From Atractiella rhizophila (taxonomy: Eukaryota), in assembly GCA_021432655.1 (NCBI GenBank), contig MU271559.1:1-44605 (forward strand): DNA of 44,605 nt, in the 5' to 3' direction. Made by a program: the position numbers and the translations under genes. The first letter of the stretch is position 1. Every line of letters begins with the position of its first letter. Below are positions 2,272-40,078 of the stretch, one piece after another. The notes beneath the pieces were generated by a model. It was not told where the DNA came from. It did no database searches and worked only from the letters and a program-made list of their open reading frames with translations.

Positions 2272-3191
2272 NNNNNNNNNNNNNNNNNNNNNNNNNNNNN
2301 NNNNNNNNNNNNNNNNNNNNNNNNNNNNNNNNNNNNNNNNNNNNNNNNNNNNNNNNNNNNNNNNNNNNNNNNNNNNNNNNNNNNNNNNNNNNNNNNNNNN
2401 NNNNNNNNNNNNNNNNNNNNNNNNNNNNNNNNNNNNNNNNNNNNNNNNNNNNNNNNNNNNNNNNNNNNNNNNNNNNNNNNNNNNNNNNNNNNNNNNNNNN
2501 NNNNNNNNNNNNNNNNNNNNNNNNNNNNNNNNNNNNNNNNNNNNNNNNNNNNNNNNNNNNNNNNNNNNNNNNNNNNNNNNNNNNNNNNNNNNNNNNNNNN
2601 NNNNNNNNNNNNNNNNNNNNNNNNNNNNNNNNNNNNNNNNNNNNNNNNNNNNNNNNNNNNNNNNNNNNNNNNNNNNNNNNNNNNNNNNNNNNNNNNNNNN
2701 NNNNNNNNNNNNNNNNNNNNNNNNNNNNNNNNNNNNNNNNNNNNNNNNNNNNNNNNNNNNNNNNNNNNNNNNNNNNNNNNNNNNNNNNNNNNNNNNNNNN
2801 NNNNNNNNNNNNNNNNNNNNNNNNNNNNNNNNNNNNNNNNNNNNNNNNNNNNNNNNNNNNNNNNNNNNNNNNNNNNNNNNNNNNNNNNNNNNNNNNNNNN
2901 NNNNNNNNNNNNNNNNNNNNNNNNNNNNNNNNNNNNNNNNNNNNNNNNNNNNNNNNNNNNNNNNNNNNNNNNNNNNNNNNNNNNNNNNNNNNNNNNNNNN
3001 NNNNNNNNNNNNNNNNNNNNNNNNNNNNNNNNNNNNNNNNNNNNNNNNNNNNNNNNNNNNNNNNNNNNNNNNNNNNNNNNNNNNNNNNNNNNNNNNNNNN
3101 NNNNNNNNNNNNNNNNNNNNNNNNNNNNNNNNNNNNNNNNNNNNNNNNNNNNNNNNNNNNNNNNNNNNNNNNNNNNNNNNNNNNNNNNNNN
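2272..3191. other. Assembly gap (N run)
   Basis: Run of N between the two RTA1 copies. Confidence 1.
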
Positions 3192-5267: not shown

Positions 5268-5292
5268 NNNNNNNNNNNNNNNNNNNNNNNNN
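5268..5292. other. Assembly gap (25 N, true size probably larger)
   Basis: N run. The 5' exons of the downstream GH45-like gene are missing here. Confidence 0.95.
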
Positions 5293-28202: not shown

Positions 28203-30524
28203 ATGGATGGACTACCGTGCCCAATCAAAGCAAAAACTGGGGTTTGCCCAGACGGAACAAGCTGTCCCAGAGCGAAATCACATGAATGGGATCAATCCGT
28301 CCTCATCCAAGCTAGCATTTGCAAATTTTCTACATGGCCTGGTGCCAAGTGCAAGCCACGGTGCCCATATCTTCACCAGGGAGATTATACAGTGGCAAAT
28401 GGTGCGACCGGTACCCCTCCTCCAGCTGCAATCCTGTAAGCTGATATATGACTCTTCTTTACAACCCTATGACCTATCTCATGCTTCTCAGGTCACAGCA
28501 ACCCTCTACTTCGACTGTTTCAACTAAACTAGGGTATGTTTTTTTACACATTTTAGCGTGACCACTCTGCTGCTAGTAGTGATATGTGTTCGACACGGGC
28601 TGCCCCGCATGTGCCTTCCTAACTTCTCTACTTGATCGGTGCCTCGATATTATACTGAAATATTGGACGGTAGAGATCTAGAAAACAAGGCTCGACAGCC
28701 AGTCCCTGGTAGCGGAAAGAACGCAAACTCACTTCCGACTCCCAGGAAAACTCCTGATAACTCAAGGTATGGCATTAGGAAAAGTTTTCTACAACATATA
28801 CGTATGCTTTACTTAGGAACACGGATCAATTACCGCAATTTCCAGGGTCCGTGCACAACACCACCCAATTTTCTGCCTTGCCCGTATCACCTCTGGTCAA
28901 TAGGTAAGTTACCTGACAAATAACTTTTAACTTCATATTCCTGAAGGGCTTTTGCGGAATAGTTCTCCGGTACTAAACACCAACGTTGGTCCCATATCAC
29001 GCCAGGCATCCAGGTGAGACTGAGTCTTGGAACGTCGACATTTACCGATAATTGGGTGACTTCCGTAAACTGTAAGAGGGGAGAATGCAAAGGCGGACGA
29101 AGAAGGGCAAGTCATCTCACCATCAAAGTCGTTGCGTTTTCTCCATACCTCTCATTCGAATTGGATCCTCAGCACTGATGTTTAAAAAGGATGCTGGAAC
29201 AGCCAGCGAGAAACAGTGGCTCAACGCAAGTCCCTGCGGGTCGACAGGATGTTATTCGAGGGCAGGAGTCAGTACATGGATGTATGGAACAAGTCCGCGT
29301 TCTTATACACCTTACGTCCCAAAAGTATTGAATATCACTTCGTCGTTAAAGGGAGGCGACGTTAGGGAAGTTAGTGATCAACTGCAGGATGCGATAGAGG
29401 ACAAGATTCAGACAATGGTTTGGAACTTCAAGACGAACCCTCTGTCCTGACGCGACTGGATTAGGCGAGCGAGCTTCAGAATTTGCGTCACCAAGTTTCG
29501 ATTCTGAACGAAGAAATAGAGTCATCAAAGAAGAAAGCTCGCTCAGCGGTATAAATATCTAATATGGAGTAGGAATTTACTGATGCCTTTTTAGGAGTCG
29601 AAACTACGGAGGCAAGAACACGAGACATTGATGTATAGGAGAAGAGCCGAAGATGCTGAGACGGTCACTGTAAGGGTCTCGTGGGTTGCTTCTACGCTTC
29701 TGTAATCCCTTAGACAGGGGATCAACCATCTCAAGTGGAAGAACGAGCTGCTTCAAGAGCGTGAGCGCGTTTCAAGATTGAATGCCAAACTGGCGGCGGC
29801 TAGGAGGGAGCAATGGGATGCGACGAGAAAGGCATACGATGAAAAAGAAGCGGAGATCACAGAACACAAGAAATTATTAGCGGCGAGCGAAACTCGAGAG
29901 GTAGTAAGCCCCATCTGTCTGTTTATCTCATCACGACTGACTTGTGACTGGCAAGGCACTCTCGCGAGAATTAAGTCGAATAGCCCAGGATGACAAGCTC
30001 CAGACTTCTACCTCAGTGAGAGCTCAGGAGGTCAGGCGGTTACAGAAGATAGACACCTTAAGCTATCTCATCATATACCTGAGATCGTTAACCTATTACC
30101 GTCGCCAGGCTCGTACCTTTGTCCCTAGCTTTTGGTTTCCTCAAACCTTGCGCTCCGTGATAGCAACTCGGTATTGACAGATCTACCACACGAGAACAAA
30201 TTAGGACTACCTTTGGAAGCAACAGTTTGAAGTGTAGGCTGTCTGCCTCCAACATCTTCGCACTGACTGTCGTGGATTCTTCAGTCAACTGTGACATCTC
30301 AAAAAGTGGCGGCCGTGAGTTGCTTACCATCTTGTTTTATATGGCAATGAAGGACAGTTATTGTACGGCACCAGGCAGACCAATGCACGAGTTGGTAAGT
30401 GTCCCATTGTTGGTAGGAATCAGCCAGGGAGAAAACATGTTGTCCGTGACAGATCAACAAAGCCAAGGATATCGTTTTGTGGGGGCGCAAGTCTGACCGC
30501 CACTTTTGTGGACGCCGCAGGTAA
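28203..30524 (+). CDS. CCCH zinc-finger pair + coiled coil + degenerate J-like domain (HPD replaced by NCD), many exons
   Basis: N-terminal C-x8-C-x5-C-x5-H plus C-x9-C-x3-C-x3-H. In-frame exon chain through a coiled coil (ASELQNLRHQV..., ERERVSRLNAKL...). Terminal exons 30164-30233, 30285-30314, 30375-30394 and 30453-30524 give QLGIDRSTTREQIRTTFGSNSLKFNCDISKSGGRRPMHELINKAKDIVLW. The start codon and the donor before 30164 are uncertain. Confidence 0.72.
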
Positions 30525-30981
30525 CCATATAACAAGTCAAGAATATCGTAATGAAAATAAATGATCATTAGTTCGTTTGATGTTTTGTGGTTGGTACAAA
30601 GCACAAGTTAGCTGAGGACTAGTGCTGGAAGGAATAGTAGACGAGACTGAAAACTGAAGCCAGATGATCAAGGACGAGAGAGCACACAATTAAGTAATAG
30701 AAACTAGGAAGAGCTGATAATACAATGTCCATCCTCATCGCCTGAGCACTAATCCTGAAGTGACCAAAATTGAGGGAGAGGGGGAAGGACCGGAACAACC
30801 ACAAATTGATAGATGGATAGAATGGAAGGAGACTCGGTATGTTAACGACAATGTGGTTGATGAACTTATAAGTTGAGGGATTACAAATCAAGATAGAAGA
30901 GAGGAAAATCGAAAACTGAATGCTGCAAACCTGATACCTCCAATGCAAACTCCGTTTCCCTATCCCATGTGATGCCTTGGT

Positions 30982-33283
30982 TTACCAACCGGAGGTATGG
31001 TAGCTTTGTCCGAACCTTTCCTGCCACGGTGTCTCCTCTTCATCGTCGCCAATCTCACTCTGGGTTTCCAGGCCATCGTCATAATCTTCTTGCCCGTTCT
31101 GCCTCCTGTCATTCCGTCTCAAATACTTGTTGGCCATCTCCCTCCTCTGATTCTTATCCGCGGCAACGCTTTTATCCTTCAGAATCTTGGTGAACTTCTT
31201 CAACCTCTCTTCGACAGGAACGATCTTTCTCCTGCGTCCATTGACCATGATGGTGCCCGGTTCAGGCGTGACCTCCGGCGCAGGACCCAATCGATCTTCA
31301 ATATCTCTGATGTCCTTGCCAGGAGGGAGGCTGACTGAAGTTCCCAAAACCTGGGTTTTGCTCACATCTCCCACAGTTGCACCACTCTTCAATGCCATTG
31401 CTGGCGGTTTCGGGGTATCGTTCGGGTTCCCCCAAATGGGACCCTTAATGACCTTTGCCCAGTTCCCAGAGCCATAGCCCTGTCCCATTCCCTCTCCTGG
31501 CATGCCTCTCTCTGATGAGATTCTGCCAAAGACCCTCGCTAAATTCCCCTGCCAACATATTGCGTTTCGTTGTCCTCGGTGACAAAGGAGGAGCCATCAA
31601 GCCCTCGAGACGCTCCCTGTCTCTCCGATCAATTTTGACCTGATAACGCTGCTTCTGCTCTTTTGCCTCAGCATCTTCCTCCTCTTCATCCTCATCGTCA
31701 CTCTCCAACTCGATACCCGCTGGTTTCCCGCCTAGTCGACTGGGGCCAGGTATCGGTCGAGGTTGTGGAGGACCAGCAGTGGCAGGGGTGACAGCAGTCA
31801 TTGGACGAAGAGCGGAGAGGCCGCCTCTAGCACCGAGGGGCAGGGAACCTTTGGCTTTGCTGAGCTCTCCGTTCCCTTTAACTTCGAGAGCGGTCGTGCT
31901 CTTGCTGGCCTGAAGACCGGTGAGGAGATCGCGCTCGCTCTTATTCCGATGAAAGACGGCTTTGATGCGCACGTCTTCGTCGACTTGGGAGGGATGGAAG
32001 ATGGCGGTGAGCGCAGATGGACGGGTGGTGACATCGACCATCGAGACTGGACGCTTGACGAACCAAGTCTCTTTATCCCTGTTATGCTCATCCCATTCCT
32101 TTTGTAATGCCGTCTGCCGCTCATCCTCCGAGTTCAACTCCTCCTCCTCCCCTTCCGATGACCACAACGAATCCAAATCATCCTCCTCCGCATCAGTTGT
32201 CTCCAGCTCATCAGATCCACTAGACACTAGCACAGGGGCAGCTTTCAAGGGAGGCGGTAACGCTTTCTTCTTTGTCTCTGCACATGCAAGAGGGGCGGCC
32301 GAAGAAGCTGAAGTCGAAGTTGTTGACGGTTGAGAATGAATAGGCTGCAATGGCTGCAAAGCCTTAACGATGGGCTGCATCGGTTTGAGTCCTGAAGCGC
32401 CTAAACTCGCCGTCCTCCTCTGTGGGACCAACTCCTTCTCCTTTCCCTTAACCTTGGATCCGTTCGCCATAGGTTGTAGAAGTGGGAGACTCGTCGAAGG
32501 GGTCTCATCCTCGCTAGGAACGATTTCGAATCCCTTTACCACCTTCAAAGGATCGCCTTTGATTGGCGGAGGGATGTTGAGGATCTTCCTCCTCGCCGTC
32601 TCTCCCCAGATCTGCTGGCTCCGTCTCTCAGGTTCCGCCGGTGGGGGGTTAAGCGGGGGAAGAGGTCTGAGCGGATTGACGTATCCGGGGTAAGGGAGGT
32701 CAACGAGGGGTTGCGGTGCAGTGGAACGACGCGAGAGCGATGGCTTCGGCGCACCTTTCTGGACTGGAGGGTGGTCGTGAGACATCCGACGAGCGGGTTT
32801 CGAGCCGATGGGAGGTGATGGCCCAACAGCTCCTCCAACTCGACGGGGAGAGATCGGAGATACATTCTTCTTCGCTCGATGCGTGGTAGATTGTGAATGA
32901 GAGTGTGATCGCTTCGTCACTACCGGTGAGAGCTGTCGACGAGCCACGACGGGAGAAATTGCACGGCGAGCACCTGTGGTGGTTGAGGTGTTGGAAGGTG
33001 TCGGAGAAGACACGATGCGTTTGTTAAGCACGCCATTGCTGGGCTGGATGGGTTGGGATCGATGAACAGGCATACTCCTTTTCGTCTTCCCCGATGATGC
33101 TGTCGGAGTTGGAGGTTTGGAGTGGGTTGTTGGAATCGGAGTCGCACTTGCCACAGAAGTTTGGAGTTTAGCGAGTGGACAAGCGATGGGTGATAGTGGT
33201 TTGAACACTAGGCTACCGGTCCCTCCGTCCCTTTCCCTGCCTAAATCCAGTCTCGCACCTTCCAACACCTTAGCCAGCTCCGG
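30982..33283 (-). CDS. DUF3295-type low-complexity protein, 5' end in gap; frame break near 31400-31515
   Basis: PPLSPRTTKRNMLAGEFSEGLWQNLIRER and terminal YHTSGW* resemble DUF3295 motifs. Long Pro/Ser-rich ORF. Confidence 0.8.
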
Positions 33284-33937
33284 NNNNNNNNNNNNNNNNN
33301 NNNNNNNNNNNNNNNNNNNNNNNNNNNNNNNNNNNNNNNNNNNNNNNNNNNNNNNNNNNNNNNNNNNNNNNNNNNNNNNNNNNNNNNNNNNNNNNNNNNN
33401 NNNNNNNNNNNNNNNNNNNNNNNNNNNNNNNNNNNNNNNNNNNNNNNNNNNNNNNNNNNNNNNNNNNNNNNNNNNNNNNNNNNNNNNNNNNNNNNNNNNN
33501 NNNNNNNNNNNNNNNNNNNNNNNNNNNNNNNNNNNNNNNNNNNNNNNNNNNNNNNNNNNNNNNNNNNNNNNNNNNNNNNNNNNNNNNNNNNNNNNNNNNN
33601 NNNNNNNNNNNNNNNNNNNNNNNNNNNNNNNNNNNNNNNNNNNNNNNNNNNNNNNNNNNNNNNNNNNNNNNNNNNNNNNNNNNNNNNNNNNNNNNNNNNN
33701 NNNNNNNNNNNNNNNNNNNNNNNNNNNNNNNNNNNNNNNNNNNNNNNNNNNNNNNNNNNNNNNNNNNNNNNNNNNNNNNNNNNNNNNNNNNNNNNNNNNN
33801 NNNNNNNNNNNNNNNNNNNNNNNNNNNNNNNNNNNNNNNNNNNNNNNNNNNNNNNNNNNNNNNNNNNNNNNNNNNNNNNNNNNNNNNNNNNNNNNNNNNN
33901 NNNNNNNNNNNNNNNNNNNNNNNNNNNNNNNNNNNNG
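33284..33937. other. Assembly gap (N run)
   Basis: N run. Confidence 1.
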
Positions 33938-34439
33938 GGAAGAAGCGATGGTGGTTGGGGAAATAAGTGTTCTTCTTGTGACGGGTGTCCGCAATCCGAT
34001 AGTTCGGATCTCGGGGCGCGGTTAAATATTCAAGGTCTCGGAGAAGTGGGGTATATCCGATCACACGGTTCATGCCACCGACTCAGACCATCTCACATCT
34101 GATTGAGGATGCCAAAATCTCTGCTTATACCATGTGCAGCTTCAAGCCATGGCGCATCGAATTTGGTTAGGAATGTCGAGTTCCCTTCTAGACGATAATT
34201 TGGATGGATCAGGATGGGATCATGCCAAAGTGCTGCTGCGATATCGATGCAGATCGATTGATTGGCCTTCCGACGCACTAAGCGACTCACGAGCTCTCCT
34301 GCATGCTTTCCTTGTTCAATACTTTGGATTTTCCAGACCTCTTTTTCTTGAACTCGTCCGCCTTCCTGCCCGTTTCATGTTCTGTTCGTGTTCTGCAAGT
34401 GGGGGTCGAGTGTCCGACGTCCCGCTTGCCACAAGTTCA

Positions 34440-35379
34440 NNNNNNNNNNNNNNNNNNNNNNNNNNNNNNNNNNNNNNNNNNNNNNNNNNNNNNNNNNNNN
34501 NNNNNNNNNNNNNNNNNNNNNNNNNNNNNNNNNNNNNNNNNNNNNNNNNNNNNNNNNNNNNNNNNNNNNNNNNNNNNNNNNNNNNNNNNNNNNNNNNNNN
34601 NNNNNNNNNNNNNNNNNNNNNNNNNNNNNNNNNNNNNNNNNNNNNNNNNNNNNNNNNNNNNNNNNNNNNNNNNNNNNNNNNNNNNNNNNNNNNNNNNNNN
34701 NNNNNNNNNNNNNNNNNNNNNNNNNNNNNNNNNNNNNNNNNNNNNNNNNNNNNNNNNNNNNNNNNNNNNNNNNNNNNNNNNNNNNNNNNNNNNNNNNNNN
34801 NNNNNNNNNNNNNNNNNNNNNNNNNNNNNNNNNNNNNNNNNNNNNNNNNNNNNNNNNNNNNNNNNNNNNNNNNNNNNNNNNNNNNNNNNNNNNNNNNNNN
34901 NNNNNNNNNNNNNNNNNNNNNNNNNNNNNNNNNNNNNNNNNNNNNNNNNNNNNNNNNNNNNNNNNNNNNNNNNNNNNNNNNNNNNNNNNNNNNNNNNNNN
35001 NNNNNNNNNNNNNNNNNNNNNNNNNNNNNNNNNNNNNNNNNNNNNNNNNNNNNNNNNNNNNNNNNNNNNNNNNNNNNNNNNNNNNNNNNNNNNNNNNNNN
35101 NNNNNNNNNNNNNNNNNNNNNNNNNNNNNNNNNNNNNNNNNNNNNNNNNNNNNNNNNNNNNNNNNNNNNNNNNNNNNNNNNNNNNNNNNNNNNNNNNNNN
35201 NNNNNNNNNNNNNNNNNNNNNNNNNNNNNNNNNNNNNNNNNNNNNNNNNNNNNNNNNNNNNNNNNNNNNNNNNNNNNNNNNNNNNNNNNNNNNNNNNNNN
35301 NNNNNNNNNNNNNNNNNNNNNNNNNNNNNNNNNNNNNNNNNNNNNNNNNNNNNNNNNNNNNNNNNNNNNNNNNNNNNNN
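34440..35379. other. Assembly gap (N run)
   Basis: N run. Confidence 1.
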
Positions 35380-36049
35380 TGCTGCATGGTCTTGGACAAG
35401 AAACATTTTGCCTCCTTCAAATTTCTATCCACTTCTGCCAGCAGAGCTAGCAGGAAGGATGGGTGGCGACGAAATTGCGTGCCACGCTCCAAGTTCAAGC
35501 AAGCAACCTCTGAATGTTATCCGCCTACTTCCCGAGGGAGGAGTAGGCTCCAAGTTCGACATCGGAATGCTCCACTTCTTTGCCAATCTCGTGCTTCTAA
35601 GGTTACTCCCTGACAATGCTGATGGCCAAAGCTGCGCGAGGACACTCCGACTGCTCCGATTGTAACAGAGCTCGACCGTTATCGCCTAGTTGGAAGCTTT
35701 AAGCGACCACTGCGAAGGGGTGATGGGAGCGTCCGGTTCCTTTGTTCTGTGTCCTCGCGATTTCTTCCAGAGCTGACAGTGGCGAATGCTTTTGTACCAG
35801 TAGCCGACATGTCGTTGCGAGTGTTCTCAAAGCGGAACGTAAATCCAGCCGTTTCTCCAGCCAGCAGCCAGAACAGATCGAGCATTGGAAGAAGGCTCGG
35901 TCGATGGTTGACGGTGTGGTGGTGTCTTCGATGTCGATGGTTATAAAAGTCACCCCAGGCTGGGATTTGGATTTCTCCAGCTTGGCAATCTCCATCAGAT
36001 TCAGCTCTCTTTTTTATTCGTTCTCTTCATCATTCCTTCACACCTCAAG

Positions 36050-37791
36050 ATGCGCGCTTCTCTCCTTTGGTCGTCATTCCTTTCTATTGTCGCGGTATCT
36101 GCCCAAAACTTGGTGCAGGATCCTAGTTTCAATATTGCTAGCTCGGGAGGGTGAGTCTCGCAGTCAGTTGTAATCGGAGTTGCACCTGATTGAAGATGAT
36201 AGAGGATGGTCGATCTGTTAGCATACCACAGTCTTTCGAGCCTGCAACGCTGACTACTCGTTCCAGATGGTTCGTCTTACGCTCGATATTATCCTGGAGA
36301 AGGAATAGACGGTTCATCGTATGTGCACACATCTTCACTTCAAGTTGAAAACTGATGTCAACTGTCAACGATCAGCTGCTTCGGCATTGCTTCCACGTAC
36401 GAACCTCTCGTTAGCTAGCGCAGTAAGCCCCTTGATGGACAAAAGAGCAGCTCCGAACAGTTCGATGTGGCGAGTCAACCTGTCAGCGGTCTCACCGTTG
36501 GAGGGACGTATACGCTCTCCTTCTGGCTACGCTACCGATCAACGGCACCAACGTCTGTTTATGTCACTGTCGGCGACTTCTTCTCGGGTTCGTCTACCTA
36601 TTCCCACAACTTCCACTTCTCCTTCTGGCTTGTTGATTCGCGGCGCTTTCCCAGGCGAAGTACCATCTAATCAAATTACCGGCTCTTGGGTGCAACACAC
36701 TTTCACTTTCACGTCCACAGCAAGAACCGCTTCTCTCACCATTTATGGAGTGAACTTACCGGACTGGACTTACGTTGATAATGTTTTCTTGGGTCTCTCG
36801 GGTAGCAGTTATAACCTCGTTCATGGTCAGTGCTCTTTTTCTGAGAAATAGGAAATGATCAAATTGAGATGCACAGACCCTGGCTTTGAGCAATCGAATC
36901 CTACTTCGCCTTGGGGACTATGTTCGTGTTTCCCTCCCTTTCGTGACTTTTTCTGAGACACCCACAGCTGGAGGTTCCACTGCTGCCATCGAAGCAGGCT
37001 CATATGACACATCGGCGACCGTACGTTTTCAGTTCGTCACCATCACGTTCTGACGCTGTCTTGCAGAGCTCCAGCACTCCCGATGTCGTCAGTCAACTGA
37101 TCCGTCCCCTGGATACGTCCAAATCGTATACTTTGTCCTTTTCCGCGAAAGTCGATGGGAGCTGTGTATGCTTCTCGTCCAACTGACTCTTCATCCTCCA
37201 ATGACGATTTTAGAGCTCTGCACGTCTTACGGCCGCATTTGGAATGTTCTCCAAAACCCTCACTTGCTCTGCCCTGTCTAATGGATGGTCGACATTCTCC
37301 TACGAGGTTAGACCCACAACGGACTCAATTACCATTTCTTTCTCTGCCTACAGCAATGGCAACACCATCTATGTGGACGACGTTTCGATCACGGCGGACT
37401 CCGAGCTAGCTCCCAGTGCAATCCCAGCCAGAAGGAAGCGAGAGGCAATGAAAAGAAGGCACCAACAATTGCTACATGATCATCCCTTCTGCCCCATCAA
37501 CATGTCCGCCTGTCCCGTCTTTCTTGCAAACGGCAAGAAACGTGACGGCGCTTTCGAGGTCTGCTTTCTCTTTTCCTCCTTCCATTGTTTTTTGAAGCGT
37601 CTGATTGTGCGATGCTCTAGTGCCTCGACCCAGCCACGGAGCTCAATTCCTGCGGTGGTTGCATCGGGCAAGGAGGTGTCGATTGCGAAGCCCTCCCAGG
37701 TGTCGCCTCCGTGTCTTGCCAGCAGTCTCAATGCGTCGTCTCCCGATGCAAATCTGGTTTCTCGCTCTTTGACAATGCTTGTATTGCTTGA
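36050..37791 (+). CDS. Secreted protein: two CBM4/9-like (galactose-binding fold) repeats + C-terminal CPL1/PriA-like Cys-rich domain
   Basis: Signal peptide MRASLLWSSFLSIVAVSA. Repeat 1: NLVQDPSF...TYTLSFW...WVQHTFTF...YVDNV. Repeat 2: NLVHDPGFE...SYTLSFSAK...WSTFSYEV...YVDDVSI. Then RRKR and CPINMSACP...FECLDPATELNSCGGC...GVDCEALPGVASVSC...C...C...C. Confidence 0.8.
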
Positions 37792-38479
37792 CCGCCGCTC
37801 CATTCAGTTCACCCTGTCTACCTTTCGTCGAATTAGCATAGTCGAATTAGCATAATTTTCTTCGTTTTCGGTGCTATTTCTCGTTGTCCTCTTGTTGTGT
37901 ATAGTACACAGGATTAAGAGTAGAAGTTTCCTTTCAAGTCACCTTCTTCTATTAGAGCCCACCGTCTGTCATGATAAGATTCAACCGCTTGCGCCTCCAT
38001 AGCCAAGGCCACTAGGCTGCTGATCATCGTCCTTCAAATCTGCATCTTGTTCTGGCGTTGTCGGAGTCGTTGTAATGTGAGCACTTCAAAAGACTCCATC
38101 CTTTCCTTTTTACATCCCAGCGGTATGCATCAAAATGGTACGAAGACGAGCGCAATGCATTGATGCATCCGTTCTGAATGTTCACTGAAGGAGACGCCAC
38201 CAGCTCGTTCAAGGTTTTGGGTCAGTGACGGGTTCAATCATCAATTGATTAATTAATGTTTATTGATTCCACGAAGACAGGCTATTGAATTCATTGCATT
38301 TATTCTCCATTTCAGAATGGAATTAGAGTGCGTGAAAGCTAACCATCTGAAGGTTCTGAACCATCTGAACTTTGACGGATTGTTTGGCTGCCCTTAAAGA
38401 GATAAAAAGCACCCCTAATCGATGCCTTCGTATTTCCCTTCAAATCCTCTCTGTAGTGGGAGATTGGTGAGCTATTAGT

Positions 38480-40078
38480 ATGTCGAAGCCCTGCCTGGCG
38501 CTAGCCAAGCACGGTAATTGTGTAAAAGGCGATAATTGCATCTATGGTTATTCGCACTCATGGCCAGTGGAGAGGTTGAAAGGTGCTAGTATGTGCAAAT
38601 TTCAGGATGGGAAGTGTAAGGACAAAGACACGAAGAAAGGATGCCCGTTTCTCCATCCAGAGGACTTTGAGAAGGAACACGCTGCACACAGGGACCAGTC
38701 TGTCTCCTTCCTCTCCCCACCGTCCTCTTAGCGGCTGACGATACTTACAGTGAACCTGACGACTTTGTAACGCGCCTTCAAAAGGCGACCGAGAAACGGA
38801 ACTCCACAAGAGGAGTTGAACCTCCCTTTGTACAACCGCAAACTAGCAAAGGCTCCATCGAAGGACCTACTTCAAAACCTTTTGTCCGAAAAGACCATCC
38901 ATGCATCATTAAGGCGACCTTAGGTTTCTGCAATCGAGGAAACGACTGTCCATATGCCCCATCTCATAGCTGGCCGAGGGATAAATTGGAGAAGGCCAGT
39001 CAGTGTACTTGGGAGAAGGCAAGAGGAGAATGTAAGAGACCGTGGTGTAAGTTTGTGCACCTTGGTCAAGAGAGGGAGAGGGATTTGATGGACTTCAGCA
39101 TCGACGAGTCACCACCGTTAGTCCTCATGATTCTCCACAACTTCCGCTCACAGATGGCGCAGGGGTGATACAGAGGGAGACGTCGAGTCGTTGGGTGTTC
39201 GCGACCGTCTTTCTCCAACCCAATCACACAAAGAAGCTGGTCTGACATATCCGAATAACACCTTGGATGAGCTATTAGCTGAGGGACGCCTTGAGGATGC
39301 GAAGCGACGAATCAAAGAAGCGGAGATGAAGCAGAAAATGTCTAGAGGTTCACCGAGAGATGTCGCCAAATCTAGAGCCACTGGAGCTACCTTCGATAAC
39401 ACGAGAAGCACCATACTTTCTCAAGGTGCATCCGCCAACTCTTTCACAAGCGAAACGCCGAGTACATATCAAACTTCTCCAAGTGCTTCCGGAACCAGAG
39501 AAAGGACAAAGCTAGATGCGACACAGAGGAGGGAGGTAGAACTGCTCAAAGAAGCGCTAAAGGAGAAAGAAGAGACGTTGAGCGCTCTGCAGCATGCTTT
39601 CGAAGAATTGAAGACGGAGAAGGTCGTTCATTATCAGGATGATCCTCTTTTACTCAAAGCACTCTCAAGATTGACATATTATGAGGTGTGTGTCTCGTAA
39701 AACTGAAAAAAAAGGTGAATAAGGGCCCCGTGAACCAACCTCCTAAAGGGAACAAAAAACCCAAAACTGCCCAAAACAAGAAAACAATTCCTGAAACCAA
39801 GCCGAAAGGGTCCGGGCCAACCTTTTTGCTCAATGTTCACTACCCTGCTGACAATCTTTCGCAATGCAGATCATCCGGATCTTGGAACTGTTTGTCTACC
39901 GCTCCGTGTCTACGTTTTGAACTGACAGGACCAACAGGGAAAGGCAATTTATGATCTGGTGCAAAACTCTCTTCTTCTTGCTGTTGATTTTGCTGACAGC
40001 GCGTAGATTGATCATGCGAGAAGTGTACTCGCGGATCCTGTTGAAAAGAAGAAGTATGATAAGTCTTTGGGCTGGTAA
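38480..40078 (+). CDS. Two CCCH zinc-finger pairs + coiled coil + C-terminal J-domain with HPD
   Basis: Two copies of C-x8-C-x5-C-x5-H-x-W-x7-AS-x-C..C..C-x3-H. Coiled coil EVELLKEALKEKEE. J-domain reads LTYYE | (39740-39809 exon, suspect sequence) | HPDLGT | GKAIYDL | IDHARSVLADPVEKKKYDKSLGW*. Confidence 0.78.

Follow-up and report, generated by a model that had tools for sequence, protein, structure and literature searches.

A lineage-restricted family of CCCH-finger and J-domain proteins in Atractiella rhizophila with a putative pseudo-J paralog

Introduction

J-domain proteins decide the site of Hsp70 action. The locus described here raises the question of what a J domain may do at the end of a protein that begins with CCCH-like zinc fingers, and what role is left for such a protein once the His-Pro-Asp (HPD) tripeptide of its J domain has gone. 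The window, which is the whole stretch of 44,605 nucleotides (nt) analysed here (Atractiella rhizophila, assembly GCA_021432655.1, contig MU271559.1, positions 1 to 44,605 of the forward strand), contains two genes of this kind, here called gene A and gene B, with the deposited models P0002 and P0003, respectively. A preliminary description of this DNA, made from its letters, had read them as a paralogous pair with a common finger module, a coiled coil and a C-terminal J domain split over small exons, carrying HPD in gene B and NCD in gene A. In the accessible text of a review (PMC13254874), HPD replacements are stated to abolish the stimulation of Hsp70 ATPase, HPD-less 'type IV' J-proteins are treated as a recognised class, and the meaning of HPD losses is called enigmatic.

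We propose that genes A and B belong to a lineage-restricted family of class C J-proteins that is directed to RNA and in which gene A is a pseudo-J paralog. We assign this reading a probability of roughly 0.55. Coordinates of all features are collected in Table 1.

Results

A common finger module and a common exon layout

Genes A and B lie about 10 kb apart and share an N-terminal finger module, with one copy in gene A and two copies in gene B. In agreement with the preliminary description, pairwise BLASTP detects this module with E values of 4e-11 and 8e-10 when P0002 is compared with P0001, a protein with 95% identity to the gene B product P0003. P0001 is encoded on another contig of 28897 nt and annotated as 'DnaJ-domain-containing protein', and P0001 and P0003 are the two members of one protein cluster (n=2). 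P0003 is the exact translation of the exon list of gene B.

We aligned six modules, two from gene B (B1 and B2), one from gene A, two from a third Atractiella paralog and one from Cantharellus. They share the invariant pattern P-C-x8-C-x5-C-x5-(S)H-x-W, followed by L, S, C, C and, at the end, C-x3-H; residues C5, C14, C20, H26, C39, C55 and H59 are invariant in all six. The module thus has two fingers in tandem with three Cys and one His each. In gene A, finger 1 reads C-x8-C-x5-C-x5-H-x-W and finger 2 reads C-x9-C-x3-C-x3-H, with eight of eight ligands kept. The profile built from the six modules matches solved tandem CCCH proteins, namely CPSF30 over fingers 2-3 (E 1e-6), the TTP-like chain 9y10_A over both fingers (E 7e-6), TIS11d (E 1e-4) and TTP (E 2e-3). 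Against Pfam zf-CCCH, the gene A module reaches 15 bits, which is under the cutoff of 20.5, and the Cantharellus protein P0025 clears it with 39.9 bits. An AlphaFold2 model of the 72-residue module has a mean predicted local distance difference test score (pLDDT) of 74.6. We take the module to be a tandem CCCH domain of divergent type.

At their 3' ends, both genes encode a J-type domain that is split over four small exons, as had been claimed. In gene B this is seen from joints in RNA-derived contigs, in gene A from a hidden Markov model (HMM), hhalign and an enumeration of splice paths. In the order helix exon, loop exon, micro-exon and last exon, the lengths are 70, 30, 20 and 72 nt in gene A and 70, 20, 21 and 72 nt in gene B. 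The helix exon ends in phase 1 in both genes and follows a phase-0 intron in both, located after TYYRRQ in gene A and after TYYE in gene B. In the best-conserved part, identity between A and B is about 40%. The coiled coil that had been proposed for both proteins is supported in part. For gene B, the P0001 model shows a long helix at residues 301-335 (pLDDT 70-76), and by a crude score the heptad signal of P0003 exceeds the 95th percentile of shuffle maxima at window starts 314-321. For gene A it is borderline, with a heptad score of the middle region equal to the 95th percentile of shuffle maxima.

Splicing and J domain of gene B

RNA evidence was taken from contigs of the runs X1, X2, X3 and X10, and the joints, pieces and differences reported here are the best-supported ones; a further 15 joints, 125 pieces and 103 differences ranked below them. 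The run type of X10 is unrecorded; its contigs carry GT..AG joints and are therefore considered RNA-derived. The preliminary description had called for the exon junctions to be confirmed by RNA. All joints of gene B were recovered, with 70 other letters in place of the helix exon between 39685 and 39870. These RNA-derived joints show that the predicted HPD exon of 20 nt, the micro-exon of 21 nt and the last exon exist and are in use. In addition to the GT..AG joint 39116>39163, a second X10 contig goes from 39114 to 39163 and has two other letters at the join; this may be an allele or a contig difference.

P0001 passes Pfam DnaJ (PF00226) with 47.6 bits at a cutoff of 27.8, and P0153, the third Atractiella paralog, passes with 55.5 bits. 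HPD is also present in P0001, P0153, P0007 and P0025. The J fold that had been expected is predicted for P0001. The AlphaFold2 model contains the four J helices at residues 354-358, 366-380, 388-402 and 404-414, and 10-residue block means of pLDDT in the J region range from 69 to 89. The PDB matches listed by Foldseek are all J-domains or J-containing chains, with a root-mean-square deviation of 1.4-4.1 Å over 59-71 alignment columns. Their E value is only about 0.015 because the whole 416-residue P0001 model was used as query.

The helix exon of gene B is aberrant in the assembled window. It is preceded by the letters AC, not AG, and its donor reads GTCCGG. Positions 39728-39807 are the most A+C-rich 80-nt segment of the contig, with a fraction of 0.787 compared to a mean of 0.50 (standard deviation 0.074). 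The transcripts have a canonical exon of the P0001 type at this place. Loose ends of X3 contigs at 39685 and 39870, translated by eye, give LLNVTKDATL and RKAFLEASLK, which are P0001 residues; the window instead encodes GTKNPKLPKTRKQFLKPSRKD at this exon. The loose ends differ from the window in 22 of 60 letters by our own count, with many types of change. Mutation of the kind caused by repeat-induced point mutation was considered as the origin and rejected, as the changes are mixed (G to A/C, T to C/G/A, C to G/A). Over 39229-39685, one X10 contig agrees with the window except at 2 letters and has no gap; it spans a 13-residue segment that is present in P0003 and absent from P0001. Because this contig includes the P0003-specific segment, we somewhat favour an artefact of assembly or base calling over a damaged allele. 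The single aberrant exon is also the reason why the window copy of gene B is labelled hypothetical. In its composition, the A/C-rich stretch is the extreme case on this contig. It resembles poor assembly more than biology, and similar errors may sit elsewhere on the contig.

Expression and J-like domain of gene A

Gene A is transcribed and spliced. X1 contigs contain the spliced pieces 28204-28435+28492-28532 and 29718-29903+29956-30090, X2 covers 29954-30099, and X3 covers 29718-29870, its loose end at 29670 running on into the next exon. Contigs of X1 and X2 pass the deposited donor at 30031 and extend to 30090 and 30099. The exon therefore runs to about 30108, which adds 26 codons including LRSLTYY, the counterpart of LSRLTYY in gene B. 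The X2 contig then joins 30099, with 6 additional letters, to 30162/30164. This joint speaks for the proposed start of the helix exon, and a GC..AG intron at 30109-30163 follows from it.

With the revised exons, the spliced C-terminus of gene A reads LRSLTYYRRQ, QLGIDRSTTREQIRTTFGSNSLK, F-NCD-ISKSGG, RRPMHEL and INKAKDIVLWGRKSDRHFCGRRR, followed by the stop. NCD is encoded by AAC TGT GAC, and gene A therewith lacks HPD. For the J-like reading we built our own J-domain HMM from 36 short matches of the P0001 HMMER scan, leaving out family members. Gene A scores 16.1 bits on this HMM, with NCD aligned to HPD; this score was reached by none of 2000 shuffles, whose maximum was 9.1. hhalign places the J-like part on the J alignment with 86% probability (E 5e-6, 50 columns), again with NCD on HPD, so that the HPD-to-NCD difference between genes B and A, noted from the beginning, is found at a homologous position by both methods. 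In BLASTP, the J-like part has 33% identity to the P0001 J domain over 58 amino acids (aa) (E 4.6e-6) and 31% identity to P0153 over 59 aa (E 8.7e-6).

The enumeration of splice paths allowed GT donors and a single GC donor, acceptors of the form YAG, intron lengths of 45-70 nt and up to four introns. Any J match was obtained for 8 of 1429 paths, and all eight use the helix exon 30164-30233 and a loop exon starting at 30285. The last exon 30453-30524 is kept in seven of the eight. With an alternative donor at 30306, the loop exon would be 21 nt long, and this path scores 19.5 bits. The deposited model P0002 misses the J-like domain: it reads through the intron 30234-30284, uses different joins downstream and has no Pfam match of any kind. 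Helix II of gene A contains Gly/Ser/Asn, and helix IV is lost. The frame is open across 14 exons, including 64 J-like codons, although identity to gene B is so low, and this may be a sign of selection on the protein.

Distribution of the family

A HMMER scan with P0001 gave 1116 matches at E <= 0.001 among 1.84 billion representatives, and nearly all of them concern the J domain alone. In the best 150 of these 1116 matches, the finger region was matched only by P0007, P0025 and a generic CCCH protein, P0114. The module profile search recovered only four family clusters among 1790 candidates. A regular expression for the SH-x-W module type found six proteins (P0001, P0002, P0003, P0007, P0025 and P0153) among the 158 examined, and among these six HPD is absent only from the gene A product.

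In the third Atractiella paralog, P0153 (535 aa), two modules are followed by a helical middle region and a J domain with HPD. Its cluster mate P0007, encoded on the contig of P0001, is a partial protein. P0025 from Cantharellus anzutake carries the module, one more CCCH finger and a J domain and matches TPR weakly; its model stops just after HPD. Scans of metagenome contigs gave 109 pattern matches with exon 1 of gene A and 44 with P0001, of which none was confirmed in either case. Atlas look-alikes of P0001 residues 1-190 were only generic CCCH clusters with scores <= 0.82; for P0153, the atlas gave no usable feature match and structure rows with TM <= 0.36. As far as these searches reach, the family appears small: Atractiella has three groups of paralogs, and Cantharellus adds a single protein. 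Within this reach, the suggestion of a lineage-restricted family is borne out. The picture of a simple paralog pair has to be given up, as Atractiella has at least three paralog groups instead.

P0001 and P0007 share the 28897-nt contig and are ten protein accession numbers apart. The near-identical pairs P0001/P0003 and P0007/P0153 sit on different contigs, which suggests haplotigs or recent segmental duplicates, and a clustered gene family.

Other features of the window

Four runs of N, which are gaps or else withheld letters, occupy 2272-3191, 5268-5292, 33284-33936 and 34440-35379. The interval from gene A to gene B contains two of these runs, and a long minus-strand open frame is interrupted by one. 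At 31445-34021 on the minus strand, a long Ser/Pro-rich open frame matches DUF3295 with 27.3 bits (cutoff 25.8) and is covered by X10 contigs of high word depth. A many-intron gene at 36150-37913 is covered by one X10 contig with at least eight joints, including 36919>36968, which is listed as AT..AG with two letters between. Its two longest open frames are without a Pfam match, and the C-terminal part is cysteine-rich.

Table 1. Positions of genes A and B, their exons and domains, and the RNA-derived joints of gene B in the window.
Feature	Position	Strand	Basis and remarks
Gene A	28203..30524	+	ATG at 28203; deposited model P0002, 420 aa, hypothetical protein, Atractiella rhizophila
Gene A revised model, exons 1-7 of 14	28203-28435, 28492-28533, 28674-28766, 28817-28903, 28963-29013, 29190-29271, 29352-29417	+	P0002 mapping and RNA-derived pieces
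Gene A revised model, exons 8-14 of 14	29595-29669, 29718-29903, 29956-30108, 30164-30233, 30285-30314, 30375-30394, 30453-30524	+	P0002 mapping, RNA-derived pieces, splice-path analysis
Gene A single tandem CCCH-like module	28215..28379	+	BLASTP, module alignment
Gene A charged helical middle (possible coiled coil)	29352..30108	+	Ends LRSLTYYRRQ, matching LSRLTYYE of gene B
Gene A phase-0 intron before J-like helix exon	30109..30163	+	GC start and AG end in the window; X2 joint
Gene A first J-like exon, 70 nt with phase-1 end, QLGIDRSTTREQIRTTFGSNSLK	30164..30233	+	HMM, hhalign, splice paths
Gene A loop exon, 30 nt	30285..30314	+	NCD at 30287-30295 on the HPD position (HMM and hhalign)
Gene A micro-exon, 20 nt, RRPMHEL	30375..30394	+	Splice-path enumeration
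Gene A last exon, 72 nt including stop, INKAKDIVLWGRKSDRHFCGRRR	30453..30524	+	Helix III-like; without helix IV motif
Gene B	38480..40078	+	ATG at 38480; deposited model P0003, 426 aa, hypothetical protein
Gene B exons	38480-38697, 38751-39116, 39163-39685, 39740 (or 39749)-39809, 39870-39889, 39938-39958, 40007-40078	+	Translation and RNA joints
Gene B tandem CCCH-like module 1	38489..38656	+	BLASTP, module alignment
Gene B tandem CCCH-like module 2	38899..39066	+	BLASTP, module alignment
Gene B low-complexity and helical region	39163..39685	+	Ends LSRLTYYE
Gene B aberrant A/C-rich stretch (helix I-II exon 39740-39809 and two flanking introns)	39686..39869	+	Composition, transcript mismatch
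Gene B loop exon, 20 nt, HPD (CAT CCG GAT) at 39872-39880	39870..39889	+	Joints 39685>39870 and 39889>39938
Gene B micro-exon, 21 nt, GKAIYDL	39938..39958	+	Joints 39889>39938 and 39957>40006 (cut +1)
Gene B last exon, 72 nt including stop, IDHARSVLADPVEKKKYDKSLGW	40007..40078	+	RNA joints, translation
Gene B joint	38697>38751		X10
Gene B joint	39116>39163		X10
Gene B joint, other letters (70) between	39685>39870		X10, X2
Gene B joint	39889>39938		X10, X2, X3
Gene B joint (cut +1)	39957>40006		X10, X2

Discussion

Each protein of the family begins with one or two tandem CCCH-type modules, continues with a charged helical middle and ends in a J domain that is split over four small exons. A canonical J domain with HPD is found in the B type (P0003, P0001) and likewise in the third paralog (P0153, P0007). 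In the mechanism that we propose, the fingers may bind RNA or a ribonucleoprotein (RNP), and the J domain would trigger ATP hydrolysis in a cytosolic or nuclear Hsp70 on the finger-bound client, with the outcome that Hsp70 is delivered to a specific RNP. Gene A would be an old, diverged paralog with its finger module intact and its J-like domain recognisable, in which HPD (now NCD) and helix IV have been lost. Given the loss of HPD, it would therefore be a pseudo-J (type IV) protein unable to activate Hsp70. It fits the definition of type IV given in PMC13254874, a recognisable J domain with HPD non-conservatively replaced, and with 16 bits its recognisability is moderate. Most likely it would work through its fingers without Hsp70 activation, or compete with the HPD paralogs for targets.

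A number of observations weigh against this interpretation, and several of them would fit better if gene A were a decaying duplicate, its J-like exons a functionless relic and the whole protein maybe heading to loss. On our HMM, gene A reaches its 16.1 bits compared to 73-80 bits for the B-type proteins. Confirmation by RNA is complete for gene B and covers, among the joints listed, only the first J-like junction of gene A (~30108>30164). At 30100-30106, the X2 contig has six letters and the window seven, with one fewer at 30100; if real, this deficit would put the J-like exons out of frame in the source organism of X2. The GC rather than GT donor in the intron before these exons, NCD in place of HPD, the Gly/Ser/Asn residues in helix II, the missing helix IV and the failure of protein and metagenome searches to find an A-type relative elsewhere all point in the same direction. 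Still, we consider decay unlikely. In the window, the frame is open over 14 of 14 exons with the 64 J-like codons included, the module keeps its full set of zinc ligands, and the gene is expressed as spliced RNA. Moreover, the J-like similarity to the paralogs of 31-33% identity would be unexpected after long neutral drift.

Other counterpoints concern gene B and the fingers. In the interval from 39685 to 39870, none of the RNA-derived contigs reached a match of 90% likeness to the window, and P0003 as assembled scores 14.1 bits on Pfam DnaJ, under the cutoff of 27.8, because exon 39740-39809 is aberrant. Of the Pfam assignments that the preliminary description had suggested, DnaJ thus stands for P0001 and fails for P0003, and zf-CCCH stays sub-threshold in the modules of the window: all Atractiella fingers are under the Pfam cutoff, with 17.7 bits as the best value in the window. 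Finger 1 has the spacing C-x5-H and not the CCCH-canonical C-x3-H, with two extra residues before the histidine. The module model has no Foldseek match in the PDB at E <= 10, and its structure alignment by VIA-align is weak (CPSF30 Z 2.7, others Z 2.3 and 2.0). These features, together with the invariant SH-x-W, would also fit a reading in which the Cys/His modules are not RNA binders and make protein or other contacts, with Hsp70 sent to a non-RNA client. We regard this as improbable, since the solved proteins matched by the profile are RNA-binding tandem CCCH proteins (CPSF30, TTP, TIS11d, 9y10_A) and the Cantharellus module protein lies well above the zf-CCCH cutoff.

Gene A could also be a dedicated partner or regulator of the HPD paralogs in the manner of Pam18/Pam16, gating the recruitment of Hsp70 to RNPs by J:J-like contact or a heteromeric coiled coil. 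The precedent is that Pam16, without HPD, joins the Pam18 J domain in a stable complex, as described in the accessible text of PMC13254874. Genes A and B are about 10 kb apart with a common architecture, but tandem duplicates are expected to be neighbours regardless of function. A helical middle region is common to the two proteins, and complex prediction for these regions (P0003 205-362 and P0002 197-330) gave 0.09 in both runs at a mark of 0.34, which counts neither for nor against a complex. Since the paralog groups number three or more, they do not imply a simple pairing of one with one, and we hold a dedicated partnership to be distinctly less probable than decay. A J/J-like regulatory system on RNPs, in which gene A would share RNAs or heterodimerise with the HPD paralogs and thereby gate the firing of Hsp70, is a long shot. 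If true, it would be an RNA-tied Pam18/Pam16-style pair outside mitochondria, and the loss of HPD would have been selected and not accidental.

A protein that joins tandem CCCH fingers to a J domain would direct Hsp70 to particular RNAs or RNPs. Gene A, without HPD beside its intact paralogs, provides a natural test case for whether HPD loss is accidental or selected, a point left open in the accessible text of PMC13254874. The locus also shows how micro-exons of 20-21 nt defeat gene callers; the stop of the P0025 model just after HPD perhaps has the same cause. As the deposited model of gene A misses the J-like domain, the P0025 model stops at HPD and the window copy of gene B is labelled hypothetical, the range of the family may be underestimated.

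The closest known systems differ from the Atractiella family in different respects. With class C (type III) J-proteins, it shares the fusion of a J domain to an unrelated client-binding part; the B-type J domain is a canonical HPD domain above the Pfam cutoff, and its predicted fold superposes on solved J-domains. Different from these are the position of the J domain at the extreme C-terminus, its encoding by exons of 70/20/21/72 nt and the variant tandem CCCH module as its partner. The module profile matches the tandem CCCH fingers of CPSF30/Yth1 and TTP/TIS11, from which the module differs by C-x5-H with SH-x-W in finger 1, a variable spacing in finger 2 and Pfam scores below threshold.

The architecture had seemed unfamiliar to the preliminary description. 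For fungi this appears to remain so, as no fungal protein with CCCH and J-domain architecture was found, judging by the listings, among papers on J-domain or DnaJ combined with CCCH. The combination as such has been characterised in Trypanosoma cruzi, where the RNA-binding protein TcZC3HTTP carries a C3H finger and a DNAJ domain, associates with mRNA and affects proliferation according to the accessible text of PMC10913370; a C3H and DNAJ combination is also listed in the part of PMC2873481 available to us. Both domain types thus occur in one protein in either case. TcZC3HTTP is called Trypanosoma-specific in that text of PMC10913370, and we liken the two by description, not by sequence. As far as we could see, finger number, the SH-x-W form of the finger, a helical middle and a paralog lacking HPD set the fungal family apart. 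Independent origin of the two is likely, and a basidiomycete case beside TcZC3HTTP suggests that this solution arose more than once.

Gene A with its J-like domain and NCD beside HPD paralogs resembles Pam16 beside Pam18, and DNAJB13, for which the accessible text of PMC13254874 gives DKE (Pam16) and HPL (DNAJB13) in place of HPD. In contrast to Pam16, gene A arose by duplication within its own family and not from Pam16, and it has no sign of a mitochondrial import context, for which no targeting prediction was made. Compared with these systems, the combination of C3H and DnaJ was already known; what is new is a variant of class C J-proteins from fungi that includes a putative pseudo-J paralog.

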